Part shown: positions 1,175-61,936 of the stretch, piece by piece
Numbering within the stretch: position 1 is the stretch's first letter
Layout of the letters: every line of letters begins with the position of its first letter
Source of the DNA: a virus
Strand: one strand, 5' to 3'
IMG/VR virus record: IMGVR_UViG_3300010885_077086
Span: 1 to 64,000 of that record
DNA: 64,000 nucleotides
Translations under genes and position numbers: made by a program
The notes under the pieces: generated by a model
Seen by the model: only the letters and a program-made list of their open reading frames with translations
Told to the model about the DNA's origin: nothing
Databases searched by the model: none

Positions 1175-1465
1175 TTAGTCTAAATTCTGAACACCCAATC
1201 CAACGACATGAATCTGATATCCCTTGTTATCTAAAAGCTCAACTTCCTCCTGGTCTTCCCTTCTAACAACAAGAGTCTTTTTCTGTGTAGGCGTAGGATT
1301 TGAAACCTGCTCTTCCTTTATATTTGAAACAGTCTGCTGTGATGCCAATATTGATCTAAGCTCTTCAAGCTGAGAATGAATCTTTTCAAGCTCTTTTGAG
1401 AAAAGACCTATGCCACTTTTTAGCTCTATTACAGACTTTATAGTTGAGTTTATCTGATCATTCAT
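1175..1465 (-). CDS. Hypothetical protein
   Basis: 96 aa, start overlaps the guaB stop. Confidence 0.7.
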   Translation of the reverse strand: MNDQINSTIKSVIELKSGIGLFSKELEKIHSQLEELRSILASQQTVSNIKEEQVSNPTPTQKKTLVVRREDQEEVELLDNKGYQIHVVGLGVQNLD

Positions 1466-2535
1466 TATTCCTTCCTTGTTCCAAAAGCATGAGACTCAAG
1501 GAGTCCAGCGTGAGTTATTCTTACAAACTTAGCATTTCTTCTCAGTTCTTCAAGATTTTTTGCATTAGCATAAGTCATTCCAGACCTTAGACCACCAGCA
1601 AATTCTCCTAGAATTGGAGCAACTGATCCTTTTGCTGGGATTCTTGTTGATACACCCTCTGCACAGGTTAGAGGCTTTAAGCCTCCTCGATGATCTTTCT
1701 GAACTTCTGCTGATGCCATGCCGCGATAGACTTTGTATGTTATGCCGGCATTTTCATCGCGCATCAAGGCTCCCGGAGTTTCATCGGTTGCAGCAAAAAG
1801 ACTTCCGCACATTACAGCGTCAGCACCAGCGGCAATTGCCTTAACAACATCTGATGGATAGCGAATTCCTCCATCTGCTATAATTGCTATCTTTTTATGG
1901 TCATAAACTGCGTTTCTCATATATAAGCACTGCATTATAGAATGAAGGAGTGGTACACCAAATCCTGTCTGAATTCTTGTAGAGCAGATACTTCCTGATC
2001 CTATTCCAACCCTTACAGCATCTACCATTCCTGTATTTGCAAGAAAATGAAATCCCTCTCCAGTAGCAACATTTCCAGCAATTATCTTTATGTCTGGTGC
2101 AATATCCTTTATCTTGCCAAGTCCATCTGCCATATAAGATGAATGACCATTTGCAACATCAACTAAGACTGCATCGAGTGGGGCTGAGTTCCATAGCTCT
2201 TTAAATCTTGATACCTCATCAGTACCGAGTCCAACAGCAACAACCTTTGGAATCTCTTTCTTATTTTCCTGTTCGGCTCTAACAATAGACCTAACGTTAT
2301 CTATCTGCTCTGAGGGAGACATAAAGCGATGTATTACTCCCATACCTCCGGCAAGACCAATTGCTATTGCCATCTTTGATTCTGTTACTGTATCCATTGG
2401 AGAGGCTATCATTGGAAGAGTAAGATTAACTCCTGCAATATTTGTATCTAGTGTTGGAACCGATCTAGATCTTACTTCTGTATAAGTAGGTACTAAAAGT
2501 ACATCATCAAAAGCTAATGCTTCAGTAATATTCAT
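1465..2535 (-). CDS. guaB: IMP dehydrogenase / GMP reductase family, without CBS domains
   Basis: FDDVLLVP, SPMDTVTE, catalytic GSGSICSTR, IIADGGI, YRGMAS, EGV. Confidence 0.9.
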   Translation of the reverse strand: MNITEALAFDDVLLVPTYTEVRSRSVPTLDTNIAGVNLTLPMIASPMDTVTESKMAIAIGLAGGMGVIHRFMSPSEQIDNVRSIVRAEQENKKEIPKVVAVGLGTDEVSRFKELWNSAPLDAVLVDVANGHSSYMADGLGKIKDIAPDIKIIAGNVATGEGFHFLANTGMVDAVRVGIGSGSICSTRIQTGFGVPLLHSIMQCLYMRNAVYDHKKIAIIADGGIRYPSDVVKAIAAGADAVMCGSLFAATDETPGALMRDENAGITYKVYRGMASAEVQKDHRGGLKPLTCAEGVSTRIPAKGSVAPILGEFAGGLRSGMTYANAKNLEELRRNAKFVRITHAGLLESHAFGTRKE

Positions 2536-5362: not shown

Positions 5363-6424
5363 CTAAATTGTTAATCCTTCTACAACCTCTGGTGAAGAAG
5401 AATAATAGATTCTCTCTAACTCTGGGCACTCTATATTTAGTCTTACGCTAATAAAATTTTTCATTTTCTCAAGAGATTCAAATGCTATCAATTCATTTCT
5501 GTAGAATAGCTTGAAAACTCCTGCTTCCTCTAAGACATCGCACTTTGAAACAACTAGATTGTTTCCTCCGCCAGTATTTAATGCAAAGATTACGCGATCA
5601 AGATTAAGATAGTTTACCTTACGGCGGCGACCAGTAGTTACTCCAAACTCTTGACCGATCTCTCCAATTCTTGATAATTCTGGATTATCAAAAAGTGACT
5701 CTGGAAATAGTGAATCTTCTCCAGAACGAGTCTCATAAATCTTTGCTACAGCATAAATATTATTTATTTTCTTTGGAGAAAATCCAACGGAGCAAGCGGC
5801 ATATGGCAGTGTCTCACTGCTAGTTACATATGGATAATTTCCCCAATTTATATCAAGATAAAATCCCTGAGCACCTTCGCAAAGTATGTTGCCATAGAGT
5901 CTGCCGTCAAATAGGTAGCTCTTCCAGAAAGAATCTTTTGCCGCAACATCTTTAAACTGAGTTCCTACTCTGGCATACTTATCAGAGTATGCTGGAGCAA
6001 TTCCTCTAGAGGTTGTTCCAAGCTTTCCTGCAAGATTCTTTTTGTCAAAGTCAATATGATCTGAGGTTACAATGTGTGCCATTGGAGAGATTCTAACTAG
6101 GGAGCTATCAAATCCATTTTCTTCTAAATAAGAAAGCTCTTCCTTTAGCGACTCAAGATTTAAGACACAACCTGGTCCTATTAAAGACTTAATTCCATGA
6201 AATACTCCGGATGGAACAAGGTGTGTTTTATACTTCTTATCTCCAACATAAACTGTGTGCCCAGCGTTTGCTCCTCCTCCCCATCTTACTACAAACTCAT
6301 AGTGATTAAAGAGTCCTGTAGCGCGACTTTTCTGAGAAGAAAGATAGGCTGAAACCTTACCCTTTCCACTGTCACCGGCTTGTACGTCATATATAATATC
6401 AGCGGAAATAACTTCGTGGCCCAT
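5363..6424 (-). CDS. purA: Adenylosuccinate synthetase (short form)
   Basis: GDSGKGK, GGANAGHT, EGAQG, YPYVTSS, EFGVTTGRRR, SKCD. Confidence 0.9.
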   Translation of the reverse strand: MGHEVISADIIYDVQAGDSGKGKVSAYLSSQKSRATGLFNHYEFVVRWGGGANAGHTVYVGDKKYKTHLVPSGVFHGIKSLIGPGCVLNLESLKEELSYLEENGFDSSLVRISPMAHIVTSDHIDFDKKNLAGKLGTTSRGIAPAYSDKYARVGTQFKDVAAKDSFWKSYLFDGRLYGNILCEGAQGFYLDINWGNYPYVTSSETLPYAACSVGFSPKKINNIYAVAKIYETRSGEDSLFPESLFDNPELSRIGEIGQEFGVTTGRRRKVNYLNLDRVIFALNTGGGNNLVVSKCDVLEEAGVFKLFYRNELIAFESLEKMKNFISVRLNIECPELERIYYSSSPEVVEGLTI

Positions 6425-8229: not shown

Positions 8230-8242
8230 ATTACCAGATATT

Positions 8243-9680: not shown

Positions 9681-11300
9681 CTATTCTTGGATTAGGTCGG
9701 AAAGATCTTGGTAGACACAAACTTCTGTTGTAAGGAGAGTGCCTGCGGCTGATACTGCATTTTCTACGCCCTTTCTGACTACCTTTACAGGATCAATGAT
9801 GCCTCTTTCCATCATATCTTCTACAAATTCTCCTCTTAGAGCATCAAATCCAACAAAGCCTCCCGTTGAGGTGATCTTCTCCTGTGGGCCGTGATAATCA
9901 AATCCTGCATTACGCATAATCTGAATGAATGGCTCTCTAAGAGCAGTACGGAGAATGTTTAAACCTGCAACTTCCTCTGGAAGAAGCTTTCCTGCTGGCT
10001 GAGCATTTATATAATCTCCAACAACTCTTGATGCCTGAAGAAGAGCTGAACCACCACCTGGAACAATTCCCATTTCAATTGCGGCGCGAACGGCATTTAG
10101 AGAGTCCTCTACACGATCTTTTCGCTCTCTCATTTCTCCTTCGGTAGAGCCACCAACACGGAATACTGCTGCTCCACCAGCCAACTTTGAAAGTCTGTCT
10201 TTTAGTGACATCTTCTGGTGATCAAAGATTGTTGAATCTCCCATTTGAGATTTAATCATTCTTACTCTAAGATCAACAGACTCTTTGCCACCAGCACCAT
10301 CAACAATTAGTGTTGTATTTCTTGTGCAGAGGATTCTTCTTGCTCTACCAAGATCCTCTAATTCTGCATCGCGTAGTGCTCTTCCATTAGAATTGTCAAA
10401 TACTTTTCCGCCAACAACTGCTGCAATATCTTCTAGCATATCGCGTCTAACGTCACCAAATCCTGGTGCTTTGATTGCACAACAAAGAAGATTTGCTTTC
10501 TGTCTGTTTAGAACAAGAGTTGCAAGTGCTTCTCCTTCAACGTCACGAGCAATAATAAAGAGTGGCTTACCTACTTTGTGTGCCTTCTGAATAATCTCTA
10601 GAAATTCTGTTGAGGAAGAAATCTTATCATCATAAAGAACAATATAAGCTCCTTCAAATTCACAAGATAGCTTCTCTGCATTAGTTACAAATGCTGGTGA
10701 TAGCCATCCCTTTGCAACTTGCAAACCTTCAGTATAAGTTACCTGAGTTTGTCCGCCCGTTGATTCTTCAAGAGAGATTACGCCGTCCTCTCCTACGTTT
10801 GATACAACCTCTCCAATCATTGATCCAAGCTCATGATCATTGTTTGTTGAAATAGTTGCAACATGCTTTAGTGTTTCTTCTGAATCAATGCTACGAGATA
10901 GTGATGACAGAAATGTTGTAACCTGAGAAAGACCAATATCTAAGCCTCTTTTTAAGAGAACTGGATTGTGTCCTGCAGCAACCATCTTAAGACCATCATT
11001 AAAAATGGCTTGCGACAAAACTGTTGCAGTAGTTGTTCCGTCACCAGCCATAGAGTTTGTTGCAGAAGCAGCAGTCTTAATTAGTTGCGCTCCAATATTT
11101 TGGAGAGGATCTTTTAACTCAATTGCTCTTGCGACGGATACTCCATCCTTTGTAATTACGGGAGGACCATAGCCTCTCTCTAATGCTGCATGACGACCTC
11201 TTGGACCAAGAGTGCATTTTACTGCATCTGCCACAATATTTACGCCCTTCTGAATCTCTGCTCTTGCCTCAGAACCAAACTTAACTTCTTTTGCTGACAT
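9681..11300 (-). CDS. groL: Chaperonin GroEL
   Basis: TLGPRGR, ITKDGVSVA, GDGTTTATV, APGFGDVRR, GIVPGGG, GIIDP. Confidence 0.97.
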   Translation of the reverse strand: MSAKEVKFGSEARAEIQKGVNIVADAVKCTLGPRGRHAALERGYGPPVITKDGVSVARAIELKDPLQNIGAQLIKTAASATNSMAGDGTTTATVLSQAIFNDGLKMVAAGHNPVLLKRGLDIGLSQVTTFLSSLSRSIDSEETLKHVATISTNNDHELGSMIGEVVSNVGEDGVISLEESTGGQTQVTYTEGLQVAKGWLSPAFVTNAEKLSCEFEGAYIVLYDDKISSSTEFLEIIQKAHKVGKPLFIIARDVEGEALATLVLNRQKANLLCCAIKAPGFGDVRRDMLEDIAAVVGGKVFDNSNGRALRDAELEDLGRARRILCTRNTTLIVDGAGGKESVDLRVRMIKSQMGDSTIFDHQKMSLKDRLSKLAGGAAVFRVGGSTEGEMRERKDRVEDSLNAVRAAIEMGIVPGGGSALLQASRVVGDYINAQPAGKLLPEEVAGLNILRTALREPFIQIMRNAGFDYHGPQEKITSTGGFVGFDALRGEFVEDMMERGIIDPVKVVRKGVENAVSAAGTLLTTEVCVYQDLSDLIQE

Positions 11301-60054: not shown

Positions 60055-60561
60055 TTACTCTACCTTGGCGTCAATTTTGTTATCTTCTAGAATCTGCTTC
60101 TTTAGCTCATAAGAATGTCTGTAGTCTGTCTTGCCATTCTGATGGTAGAAAGCAATATAGGATGAGAAGTAGCTTTTTTCTACAGCATGATTCTCAACAA
60201 AGAACCAGGTTCCTTCTGCTAGATTTTTCTGAATCTCATCAAAGAGAGAGATAGGATCTTCGTCATAGTAATCCTCATCTTCCTCTTCTTCATCTAGCTC
60301 TTCGTCACCCTCTTCAGAAGATTCTTCATTAAGTGCTGAGGCTCTGATCTCTGGACCGGAATCACAGAATCCATCACCAATAAATTTGAAGGTTCTATCG
60401 CCATATTCATAGAGCTTGATATAGGCATCGCTAGCTAGATAGCCAGACTGAAGATTTCCTTCCTCGGCTAGAAGATCAACGATCTTATTAATATACTCTA
60501 CTGCTGCATCATCTTTTAGAATGAACTTTGAGGTGGTATAGCGATCAACTGTAACAGACAT
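60055..60561 (-). CDS. Acidic hypothetical protein
   Basis: 168 aa, AGGAG RBS. Confidence 0.65.
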   Translation of the reverse strand: MSVTVDRYTTSKFILKDDAAVEYINKIVDLLAEEGNLQSGYLASDAYIKLYEYGDRTFKFIGDGFCDSGPEIRASALNEESSEEGDEELDEEEEDEDYYDEDPISLFDEIQKNLAEGTWFFVENHAVEKSYFSSYIAFYHQNGKTDYRHSYELKKQILEDNKIDAKVE

Positions 60562-60689
60562 TGTTATTTCTCCTATGGTTTAAATTGAGCAATAAAGGCA
60601 GATGTGGCACAGATATCAATTCCCTCTGAACACCTTGATATTATTATCAGCCATGATAAATTATACGCCTAGCTGGAGATTGAACGAGA

Positions 60690-61055
60690 TTAATCTTTTA
60701 GCTGCTTCTTTCTTTCTTCAAATCGCTTCTGCCAACGCTTAACATCGTCAAGAAGATGAAGGTTTTCTGTCTTGTAATTCCCAAGGTGACCAAAGAATAG
60801 ATGGCAGTTTACGCCATACTTCTTTGTCTCGCAGAGTGAGATTAAATTGGAAGGCTCCAGCTCAAGCTCTGGTGCAATATGAAATGGCTTTATGTGATGA
60901 ACTTCGACATCAACATTACAGCCACAAACAGCACAGACCGGAAACTCTTTTAGATGGGCTTCTCTTACTTTTGGCCAATCTTTAGATCTTTTTTGGCTCC
61001 AGTCTCTCTTTTTGTCAATAAGGACTTCTTTTATTTCTTTTATTTTAGATATCAC
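60690..61055 (-). CDS. Small HNH endonuclease
   Basis: CAVCG, VHHIKPF, NLISLC...NCH. Confidence 0.85.
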   Translation of the reverse strand: MISKIKEIKEVLIDKKRDWSQKRSKDWPKVREAHLKEFPVCAVCGCNVDVEVHHIKPFHIAPELELEPSNLISLCETKKYGVNCHLFFGHLGNYKTENLHLLDDVKRWQKRFEERKKQLKD

Positions 61056-61079
61056 AACTATATGCTATGATATTAGTAA

Positions 61080-61280
61080 CTACCTTGTAGTTCCAACTCT
61101 TCCAATCTTTCCATCAGAAAGAATCTTTTTTATATCCTTTCCAAGATCTTCCACTCCAGCTCGAAACGGTTCTATAAAAACGAACGCGGCTGCAACGATT
61201 GCAATAACAATTACTGAGATTAGTAGCATATATTCTACGGTGGATTGACCCTCTTCGTCTTTTAAAAGCTCTTTTAACAT
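61080..61280 (-). CDS. Flp (type IVc/Tad) pilin
   Basis: DEEG|QSTVEYMLL prepilin site, E+5/Y+6, hydrophobic helix; 66 aa. Confidence 0.85.
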   Translation of the reverse strand: MLKELLKDEEGQSTVEYMLLISVIVIAIVAAAFVFIEPFRAGVEDLGKDIKKILSDGKIGRVGTTR

Positions 61281-61537
61281 TATTTTATCTCATCAACAGA
61301 CTGATCAATCTCTGGATTCCAGTCAGTTCTCAATTTGATGAGAGGATTAAAGTTTGCCTTCTTTCTCTCTAAGACAAGCTGTGACTGCGGCTTCTGAAGA
61401 ACGCCTTCTATCTCTAGCTCTTCAAAGTCAATCTCAGTTTTATTTTTATAAACTATTTTTGCTTCACCATCTTCGGCAGCATGAGCAGCATGTGGCGGAA
61501 GAAGGATTAGGGATAAAATTAAAGCTTTTCTTAGCAT
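61280..61537 (-). CDS. CglF/GltF-like adventurous gliding-motility protein
   Basis: Signal peptide (AHA) then YKNKTEIDFEELEIEGVLQKP...RKKANFNPLIKLRTDWNPEIDQS. Confidence 0.7.
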   Translation of the reverse strand: MLRKALILSLILLPPHAAHAAEDGEAKIVYKNKTEIDFEELEIEGVLQKPQSQLVLERKKANFNPLIKLRTDWNPEIDQSVDEIK

Positions 61538-61570
61538 TGAGCCTCCAGCAATATATAAATATATTACCAG

Positions 61571-61936
61571 CTACTCCTTGCTAGACTCTAGCCAATTTTC
61601 AATGTCTTCATCTGACATTGTTTGAAGCTGCTCAATTGTAAGAGAGTTAAGATCTCTCTTTCCGTCCCAAGGAGCCTTTTCATAAGGCCCATCAATATCA
61701 AAAATGGGATACTTCATACAATCTCTCAATATTCTTTCTAGATCCAGCTTTAGACCGTCTTTAACAGCCTCCTCTGTATCTCCCTCCTCAGCATCAGCAT
61801 AAGATTCAACAGGCTCTTTGGTGCAAGAATGTGGAGCAAGAGGATCTTTATCATAATAAAGCTCTCCAACACCATAAAATCTATGCTCTGGTTTTAGTTT
61901 ATTTCTGTATCTTACAATTCCATAACGCCAACGCAT
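61571..61936 (-). CDS. Conserved phage protein
   Basis: MRWRY...ELYYD. Confidence 0.6.
   Translation of the reverse strand: MRWRYGIVRYRNKLKPEHRFYGVGELYYDKDPLAPHSCTKEPVESYADAEEGDTEEAVKDGLKLDLERILRDCMKYPIFDIDGPYEKAPWDGKRDLNSLTIEQLQTMSDEDIENWLESSKE

Follow-up and report, generated by a model that had tools for sequence, protein, structure and literature searches.

Predicted genes for a gliding-motor linker and an Flp-type pilin carried together by a large freshwater phage

Introduction

Cyanophage psbA is a host-derived replacement-part gene, believed to let a host machine go on working in the infected cell. Genes of the psbA type resemble the phage gene pair described here in being copies of a host subunit under purifying selection and with phage codon usage. 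The machines addressed by the present pair, however, would be motility and adhesion devices rather than metabolism. The closest precedent that we found for a phage-borne pilin is archaeal. The type IV pilins of the haloarchaeal provirus SNJ2 use the host secretion machinery and form surface filaments, and experiments have demonstrated that they alter host motility and biofilm (PMC12426801). Like the phage described here, SNJ2 has pilin genes but no assembly machine (PMC12426801); it differs in being an archaeal temperate virus with archaeal pilins and no gliding part, and in having an effect that is experimental rather than proposed.

In bacterial gliding clusters, GltF (= CglF) is a periplasmic or inner-membrane component of the focal adhesion (PMC4488436). 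A structural model depicts GltF as largely disordered and as bridging GltC to GltD and GltG, its beta-strand pairing with GltG at the TonB-like C-terminal domain and its C-terminal helix lying in a crevice of GltC (PMC11761067). Myxococcus xanthus also has the Kil system, whose pilin is KilK (PMC8460266). A preprint survey of 790 myxophages reported metabolic and envelope-sugar genes and no Flp gene, and gliding is mentioned there just in general terms (10.64898/2026.09.14.751636).

Here we describe two genes within a stretch of 64,000 nucleotides (the window) from the IMG/VR virus record IMGVR_UViG_3300010885_077086. Judged by homology, this large freshwater phage and about a dozen related fragments carry a conserved linker of the GltF/CglF family and an Flp-type pilin. 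A preliminary description, made from the letters of the window, had proposed both identities and is revisited below.

The phage and the arrangement of the locus

The window covers positions 1 to 64,000 of an 80,775-bp record rated as ~40% complete, and the genome should therefore be near 200 kb. The phage fragment contains 138 ORFs, of which 115 lie on the same strand. Matches to PHROG families include DNA ligase, T4-type RNA ligase, endonuclease VII, exonuclease, dCMP deaminase and DNA methyltransferase, together with endolysins, GroEL and HNH endonucleases; virion genes were not found in this fragment. The DNA ligase is at most 37% identical to that of any isolate, and a megablast search with 9 kb of the window returned no match among deposited phages. 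In addition, the window encodes an adenylosuccinate-synthetase-like protein (5363-6424, minus strand) that matches the PurZ-type family phrog_1211 (E 4e-63) and may be PurA or PurZ, the latter with a 2-aminoadenine genome, and near it an IMPDH-like dehydrogenase (1465-2535, minus strand; phrog_9582, E 5e-98).

The locus and its neighbours comprise the following features, in window coordinates:

60690..61055, minus strand: HNH endonuclease gene, 24 nt downstream of the Flp gene (PF01844 23.5 bits, phrog_144 E 3.4e-13)
61080..61280, minus strand: predicted Flp-type prepilin gene, 66 aa; leader MLKELLKDEEG, then QSTVEY and a ~20-residue hydrophobic helix
61280..61537, minus strand: predicted GltF/CglF-family gene, 85 aa; putative signal peptide at residues 1-20, mature part ~65 aa
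61538..61570, minus strand: leader or promoter-like spacer, 33 nt, holding TGGTAATAT and GGAGG
61571..61936, minus strand: hypothetical phage gene upstream, 121 aa; a neighbour of the pair by position

The stop codon TAA of the GltF-like gene and the start codon ATG of the Flp gene have one base in common, in a TAATG at 61278-61282, through which the Flp gene would be translationally coupled to the GltF-like gene as one mini-operon. A GGAGG ribosome-binding site lies at 61542-61546 (plus-strand numbering), 4 nt ahead of the GltF-like ATG, and TGGTAATAT is found at 61561-61569, 15 nt further upstream than GGAGG. The layout given in the preliminary description, with two genes overlapping at TAATG behind GGAGG and TGGTAATAT, is thus correct, on the minus strand. 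The TGGTAATAT nonamer occurs four times in the window against an expectation of 0.52, a count reached in 0 of 100 shuffles. A looser form, TG[CG]TAATA, stands 26-43 nt 5' of five same-strand gene starts and is a candidate extended -10-type phage promoter. Sites of the looser form are at window positions 8236, 22073, 22631, 57418/57440 and 61569, and also at position 70711 of the full record. Between the window and the sister contig IMGVR_UViG_3300043427_004450 (L002), the 33-nt spacer agrees at 32/33 positions although the GltF-like gene has a dS of ~1.1, and the spacer therefore looks like a conserved expression signal; TGGTAATAT itself would be an extended -10-like element with a presumed promoter role.

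The 121-aa upstream protein, which has no match in Pfam or NCBIfam, is 86% identical in L002 and 52% identical in a further contig (L004), and its gene adjoins the GltF-like gene in both. The HNH endonuclease gene is conserved in L002 only, and the endonuclease is a possible mobilising element.

The preliminary description took the carrier to be a phage and named a mis-assembled host segment as one of two findings that would refute its reading. The sister contig is syntenic over ~12 kb with 86-100% amino acid identity and has the pair at the same place. A Logan contig of 1,509 bp from the probable source run covers 60080-61588 across the junctions with zero mismatches, and in a different study a contig of 1,098 bp, ~90% identical, joins the HNH gene to Flp, GltF and the gene upstream of them (two of the runs are labelled 'RNA-Seq' but are probably DNA). 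GC3 is 0.38 for the GltF-like gene and 0.26 for Flp, as compared to 0.89-0.93 for cellular Flp orthologues in metagenome-assembled genomes (MAGs). Synteny, spanning contigs and phage-like GC3 together exclude mis-assembled host DNA and identify the carrier as a phage. In the ESM Atlas, the nearest clusters are 100% viral.

No other genes of a glt cluster were found in the 80.8-kb record. Similarly, Peptidase_A24, the T2SSE ATPase and TadE were not found on five phage fragments (this record and four related ones, 27-40% complete). The earlier statement that Glt and pilus-assembly genes do not accompany the pair thus extends from the window to the whole 80.8-kb record. Because no assembly parts are present on the fragments searched, both products could act only via host machines.

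A homologue of the gliding protein GltF/CglF

The 85-aa protein matches the NCBIfam model NF033764 (gliding_CglF) with an E value of 3.6e-16 and 59 bits over model positions 9-88 of 88. The resemblance to CglF/GltF, noted in the preliminary description, is therefore borne out over nearly the full model. The score is below the equivalog cut-off of 90 bits; however, the syntenic GltF proteins of aquatic Myxococcota MAGs, encoded in gltC-D-E-F-G clusters, reach 51-57 bits and are also under the cut-off. Within that phylum, 145 of 201 sampled genomes match the family and just three reach the cut-off or exceed it. Since syntenic GltF proteins score alike, the cut-off divides Myxococcaceae CglF from other members of the family, not the phage protein from genuine GltF. 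By profile match and by the blocks described below, the 85-aa protein is a real homologue of the GltF/CglF family.

The N-terminus, MLRKALILSLILLPPHAAHA/AEDGE..., is hydrophobic and ends in AHA/A, and reads by eye as a putative Sec-type signal peptide. When the phage protein was aligned by blocks with 47 cellular and 11 Myxococcaceae sequences, all conserved blocks of cellular GltF were found in it; its own are VYKxKTEIDFExLEIEG, LQKPQS, LERKKAxFNPLIKLR and DWNxEIDQSVDEIK. Like GltF (= CglF) of the M. xanthus Agl-Glt system, the phage protein is small, exported by prediction and without an autonomous fold, and the two have the blocks YKxKTExDFE, GxLxKP, LIxLRxxF and an acidic C-terminal helix in common. 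AlphaFold2 with a 19-row alignment gave no autonomous fold (mean pLDDT 59, pTM 0.17). Conservation is highest in two blocks, VYKNKTEIDFEELEIEG and, at the C-terminus, LRTDWNPEIDQSVDEIK, which may correspond by position to the modelled GltG-pairing strand and the helix in the GltC crevice. When residues 21-85 of phage GltF were modelled in complex with the C-terminal domain of a MAG-encoded GltG, the prediction scored 0.21 at best against a mark of 0.32 and carries no weight either way as to binding.

Among species-representative genomes, 48 cellular GltF-like loci were found, nearly all of them in aquatic MAGs of 60-70% GC titled Myxococcota or Deltaproteobacteria. In 37 of these loci a GltG-like gene follows the GltF homologue, and one locus (L052) has the order OMP beta-barrel, GltC, a TPR protein at the GltD position, GltE, GltF-like and GltG. 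The aquatic Myxococcota orthologues, located between gltE and gltG, are of the same size as the phage protein. The phage gene, unlike GltF (= CglF), has no other glt genes nearby, being flanked by an HNH endonuclease and hypothetical genes, and it is coupled to a pilin gene, a linkage that is absent from the cellular loci examined. Its product is ~35-39% identical to Myxococcaceae CglF, and phage-type GltF is 50-68% identical to any cellular copy. The phage copies, in a further departure from GltF (= CglF), form a viral clade with fixed substitutions of its own (LEIEG-VLQKP against cellular LDVxG-ELVKP, and DWN against DFN). Homologues of the GltF-like protein number 395, and some are encoded on metagenome contigs as long as 119 kb, 136 kb and 260 kb.

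Two observations concern the cellular clusters themselves. In several Myxococcota MAGs a divergent second GltF-like gene lies directly upstream of the syntenic gltF (L020:7515-7808, L046:7274-7639 and L051:7027-7815; 22-75 bits on a phage-type profile), which looks like a tandem duplication. Also, several MAGs with complete glt clusters and 60-70% GC (L020, L022, L030, L035, L036 and others) bear NCBI titles that are evidently wrong, namely Klebsiella pneumoniae, Enterobacterales, Rickettsiales and Alphaproteobacteria.

An Flp-type prepilin outside the tad loci

The second gene encodes a 66-aa protein that starts MLKELLKDEEG/QSTVEYMLLISVIVIAIVAAAFVF and contains the processing motif G/XXXXEY as MLKELLKDEEG/QSTVEY-MLLISVIVIAIVAAAFVF. 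It shows the Flp-type layout of 50-80 residues, G/XXXXEY and a ~20-residue hydrophobic helix. Flp/Tad pilins (COG3847) such as KilK (PMC8460266) likewise have a short charged leader that ends in G, E5 and Y6 of the mature protein and a ~20-residue hydrophobic helix. Among 553 homologues, the best 120 are 85-94% identical, and many are named Flp pilin by JGI. These features point to an Flp-type prepilin. On the Pfam models Flp1_like, DUF4244, Class_IIIsignal and Flp_Fap, however, the protein scores about 15-17.5 bits, in each case sub-threshold; the gathering scores are missed for Flp1_like (PF16982) at 17.5 against 33.5 bits and for Flp_Fap (PF04964) at 14.8 against 32.2 bits. Of the earlier wording 'canonical Flp prepilin', the Flp type stands on the motif and the JGI-named homologues, and 'canonical' is a slight overstatement.

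Three of the five MAGs with syntenic GltF also encode a full-length Flp that is 70-71% identical to the phage protein. Across mature residues 1-24, phage and MAG Flp differ by one I/L change; the window copy in addition has F at position 24 in place of the Y of the MAG copies and the other phage copies. The orthologue is an orphan gene in two MAGs, between aldehyde dehydrogenase and metallophosphoesterase genes. The MAGs with the closest Flp each have two to three RcpC/CpaB Tad markers, and these are adjoined by more distant flp paralogues. The phage Flp thus differs from typical Flp/Tad pilins in falling under the Pfam scores, in being phage-borne and in having cellular orthologues that are orphans outside tad loci. 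Close homologues of it occur in 9 of 201 sampled genomes of the phylum. Because no close homologue was found in five Myxococcus-type genomes, the tie to the Myxococcus Kil pilin in particular, which the preliminary description had drawn, is not supported, and the identity of a Kil pilin was set aside.

Recurrence among phages

IMG/VR contains 13 loci with the GltF-like gene (54-91% identity over the best aligned segment) and 17 with Flp (80-94%). The carrier contigs have a GC content of 37-57% and CheckV completeness of 4-53%, and therefore would be fragments of genomes of ~180-600 kb; several have further genes in common with this record. Flp lies within 5 kb of window-type GltF in 8 of 12 phage genotypes, a set that includes one phage-like MAG contig (L015). 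The arrangement varies: GltF may overlap Flp downstream, Flp may precede GltF by 18 bp, or the two may be 0.5, 2.2 or 4.7 kb apart. No such linkage was found in the cellular genomes examined, and on contigs with one of the genes the other was not found elsewhere, these fragments being 4-53% complete. The check proposed earlier, whether the pair is conserved in related phage contigs, thus gave recurrence.

A second viral group (L009-L014, 38-40% GC) carries a GltF-like gene that is ~56% identical and has no Flp nearby. In this group (for example L013:5451-7092), the gene lies amid small transmembrane and coiled-coil genes. Two neighbours have weak Rz-like spanin matches (E ~1e-3), and another is a conserved signal-peptide protein of 132-166 aa with a GQKAPFDGRLFN motif.

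A tblastn search of 50,697 deposited phage genomes found neither protein, and no description of such a phage module was found in the deposited phage records or the literature searched, in agreement with the earlier statement that none is described.

The sister contig encodes, ~37 kb from the pair, a 264-aa protein (69822-70616 of IMGVR_UViG_3300043427_004450; L111:3823-4617, minus strand); by synteny, the equivalent position is past the end of the 80,775-bp record. Its ~75 C-terminal residues match the AgmX/PglI (GltG/GltJ, TonB-C-like) domain NF033768 with 38.8-41 bits against a cut-off of 40, and it has no signal peptide. Eight metagenome homologues were found, and five of the six scanned score 34-39 bits on NF033768. 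One is on a contig of 119,466 bp, which is also the length of the longest contig with a 95%-identical GltF-like protein. A ~30-aa N-terminal module, MIKNLVKIAxxLDxAGFxKEAD.ID.IIR, heads this protein and two otherwise unrelated ORFs of the record (full-record 68417-68719 and 73974-74297; L104:4417-4719 and 9974-10297), and could be a targeting or packaging leader.

Origin and selection

In a tree of 60 GltF columns, all viral sequences and one 8.9-kb MAG contig labelled 'Bdellovibrionota' form one group. The viral group is nested among aquatic-MAG GltF and well apart from Myxococcaceae CglF, with weak support (SH-aLRT 80). The 8.9-kb contig is phage-like and has two other genes in common with this phage; in the phylum of the MAG so labelled, 1 of 124 genomes matches, solely through that contig. 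A Bdellovibrio origin was rejected on this ground, and the Bdellovibrio connection in the preliminary description is unsupported: the closest cellular relatives of both genes are high-GC aquatic Myxococcota MAGs. The origin of both genes is most likely in Myxococcota, as far as homology can tell.

For GltF, dN/dS is 0.04-0.13 where dS is measurable, dS being saturated in most pairs; for Flp it is ~0.04 in comparison with L002. GC3 of GltF ranges from 0.23 to 0.80 between contigs, following each contig, and Flp shows a similar pattern. Both are old, functional phage genes under strong purifying selection. The traits by which host-derived auxiliary phage genes are recognized were found for the pair, namely phage residence, composition, purifying selection and relatives in one lineage, the lineage being assigned by homology only. 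Separately, Flp GC3 is high in two contigs of low GC (40-42%), at 0.74 in L075 and 0.81 in L077 against 0.26 in the window, which hints at a more recent transfer from a high-GC source.

Possible function and competing explanations

The homology, phage residence, recurrence, linkage and purifying selection described above are observations on which a functional reading can be built. With a probability of about one half, a freshwater jumbo phage clade took two envelope subunits from Myxococcota-type hosts and uses them as working substitutes via the host Glt and Tad machines. In this scheme the GltF-like protein would be exported by Sec to the periplasm of the infected cell, where it would be a short, largely unfolded linker that presents a beta-strand to the TonB-like C-terminal domain of GltG and its C-terminal helix to the GltC crevice. 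The host prepilin peptidase would cleave phage Flp after the G of G/QSTVEY, and the cleaved protein would join the host Tad-type pilus machine. The purpose may be to maintain or re-tune gliding, together with adhesion or contact through Tad, as host expression fails in a long jumbo-phage infection. Among these steps, we infer that the products are exported and processed, that they enter host machines and that they sustain rather than block these. Working substitutes are favoured because both proteins are full-length, retain all blocks and are constrained like the cellular versions. The preliminary description had offered jammed or masked receptors and altered motility as possible effects; full length, kept blocks and purifying selection fit working subunits slightly better than poisons. 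Several findings count against this explanation: the GC mismatch between the window (38%) and the MAGs with the closest cellular homologues (60-70%); the scores under the CglF and Pfam cut-offs; the clade-specific changes in GltF at 50-68% identity, which could mean a changed partner or an antagonistic role; and the GltF-like gene without Flp amid spanin-like matches in L009-L014, which hints at another use.

In Pseudomonas, the phage proteins Tip and Aqs1 turn off type IV pili and so bring about exclusion. With these pilus-blocking proteins as precedent, the pair may instead encode decoys or dominant-negative subunits, the main alternative, which we consider rather unlikely: a GltF look-alike that floods the periplasm would uncouple the Glt transducer and a variant pilin in the membrane would clog or re-coat the Tad pilus, so that motility stops and receptors for this phage or its competitors are hidden (superinfection exclusion). 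It would fit the separate clade of the phage copies, whose strand-like block has fixed substitutions, and the lack of assembly genes on the five phage fragments searched. Further, if the 264-aa TonB-C-like protein of the sister contig belonged to the virion or served in entry, it could have a decoy in a secreted mimic of GltF. However, both proteins are full-length, neither looks capped or truncated, both modelled GltF interfaces and the whole pilin N-terminus are kept, and conservation is as strict as for a working subunit. A use internal to the phage is improbable, with the GltF-like protein as an envelope uncoupler in lysis or a ligand of the phage's own TonB-C-like protein, and the Flp-like protein as, for example, a holin-like factor. 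The surroundings of the GltF-like gene in L009-L014, with small transmembrane and coiled-coil genes and two Rz-like spanin matches, would suit it, as would the GltG-CTD-like protein on the sister contig and the nature of Flp as a 66-aa single-helix protein. The spanin matches are weak, however, the window neighbours are an HNH endonuclease and a hypothetical gene rather than lysis genes, and the exact G/XXXXEY together with a chromosomal, syntenic cellular orthologue of Flp suits a pilin better than a holin.

An artefact or a passenger, whether mis-assembled or mis-binned host DNA or a recent neutral hitch-hiker beside the HNH gene, we consider barely credible. The HNH endonuclease 24 nt downstream and the high Flp GC3 in L075 and L077, which fits recent transfers, would favour it, but the window genes are phage-like in GC3, contigs from two sources cross the junctions, gene order is the same on the sister contig, the two genes occur at 13 and 17 viral loci, and dN/dS is far below 1.

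Implications for phages and their hosts

GltF is, to our knowledge, the least understood part of the focal-adhesion motor, known solely via genetics and a structural model. The phage version, a mature peptide of ~65 residues, is nearly unchanged across phages of 38-57% GC and points to residues that matter. It is also a possible probe for the GltG/GltC interface, as a rescuer or an inhibitor. If the domain of the 264-aa protein is confirmed, these phages mimic both sides of the modelled GltF-GltG contact.

More broadly, we propose as a tentative view that a widespread freshwater jumbo clade steers the surface behaviour of predatory or gliding Myxococcota with a mimic kit of a GltF-like linker, an Flp pilin and, in close relatives, a TonB-C-like protein. 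In that case a virus would govern gliding, adhesion or contact with prey, and the functional core of GltF would be marked by a naturally minimal form of ~65 aa. The pair also gives a clue to the host of a large group of jumbo phages, namely uncultured aquatic Myxococcota. Host-derived phage genes are known as such, and what is notable here is a motility motor as the target, which extends these genes from metabolism to bacterial motility and adhesion machines. These observations suggest that phages supply or tamper with the movement and adhesion machines of their hosts.
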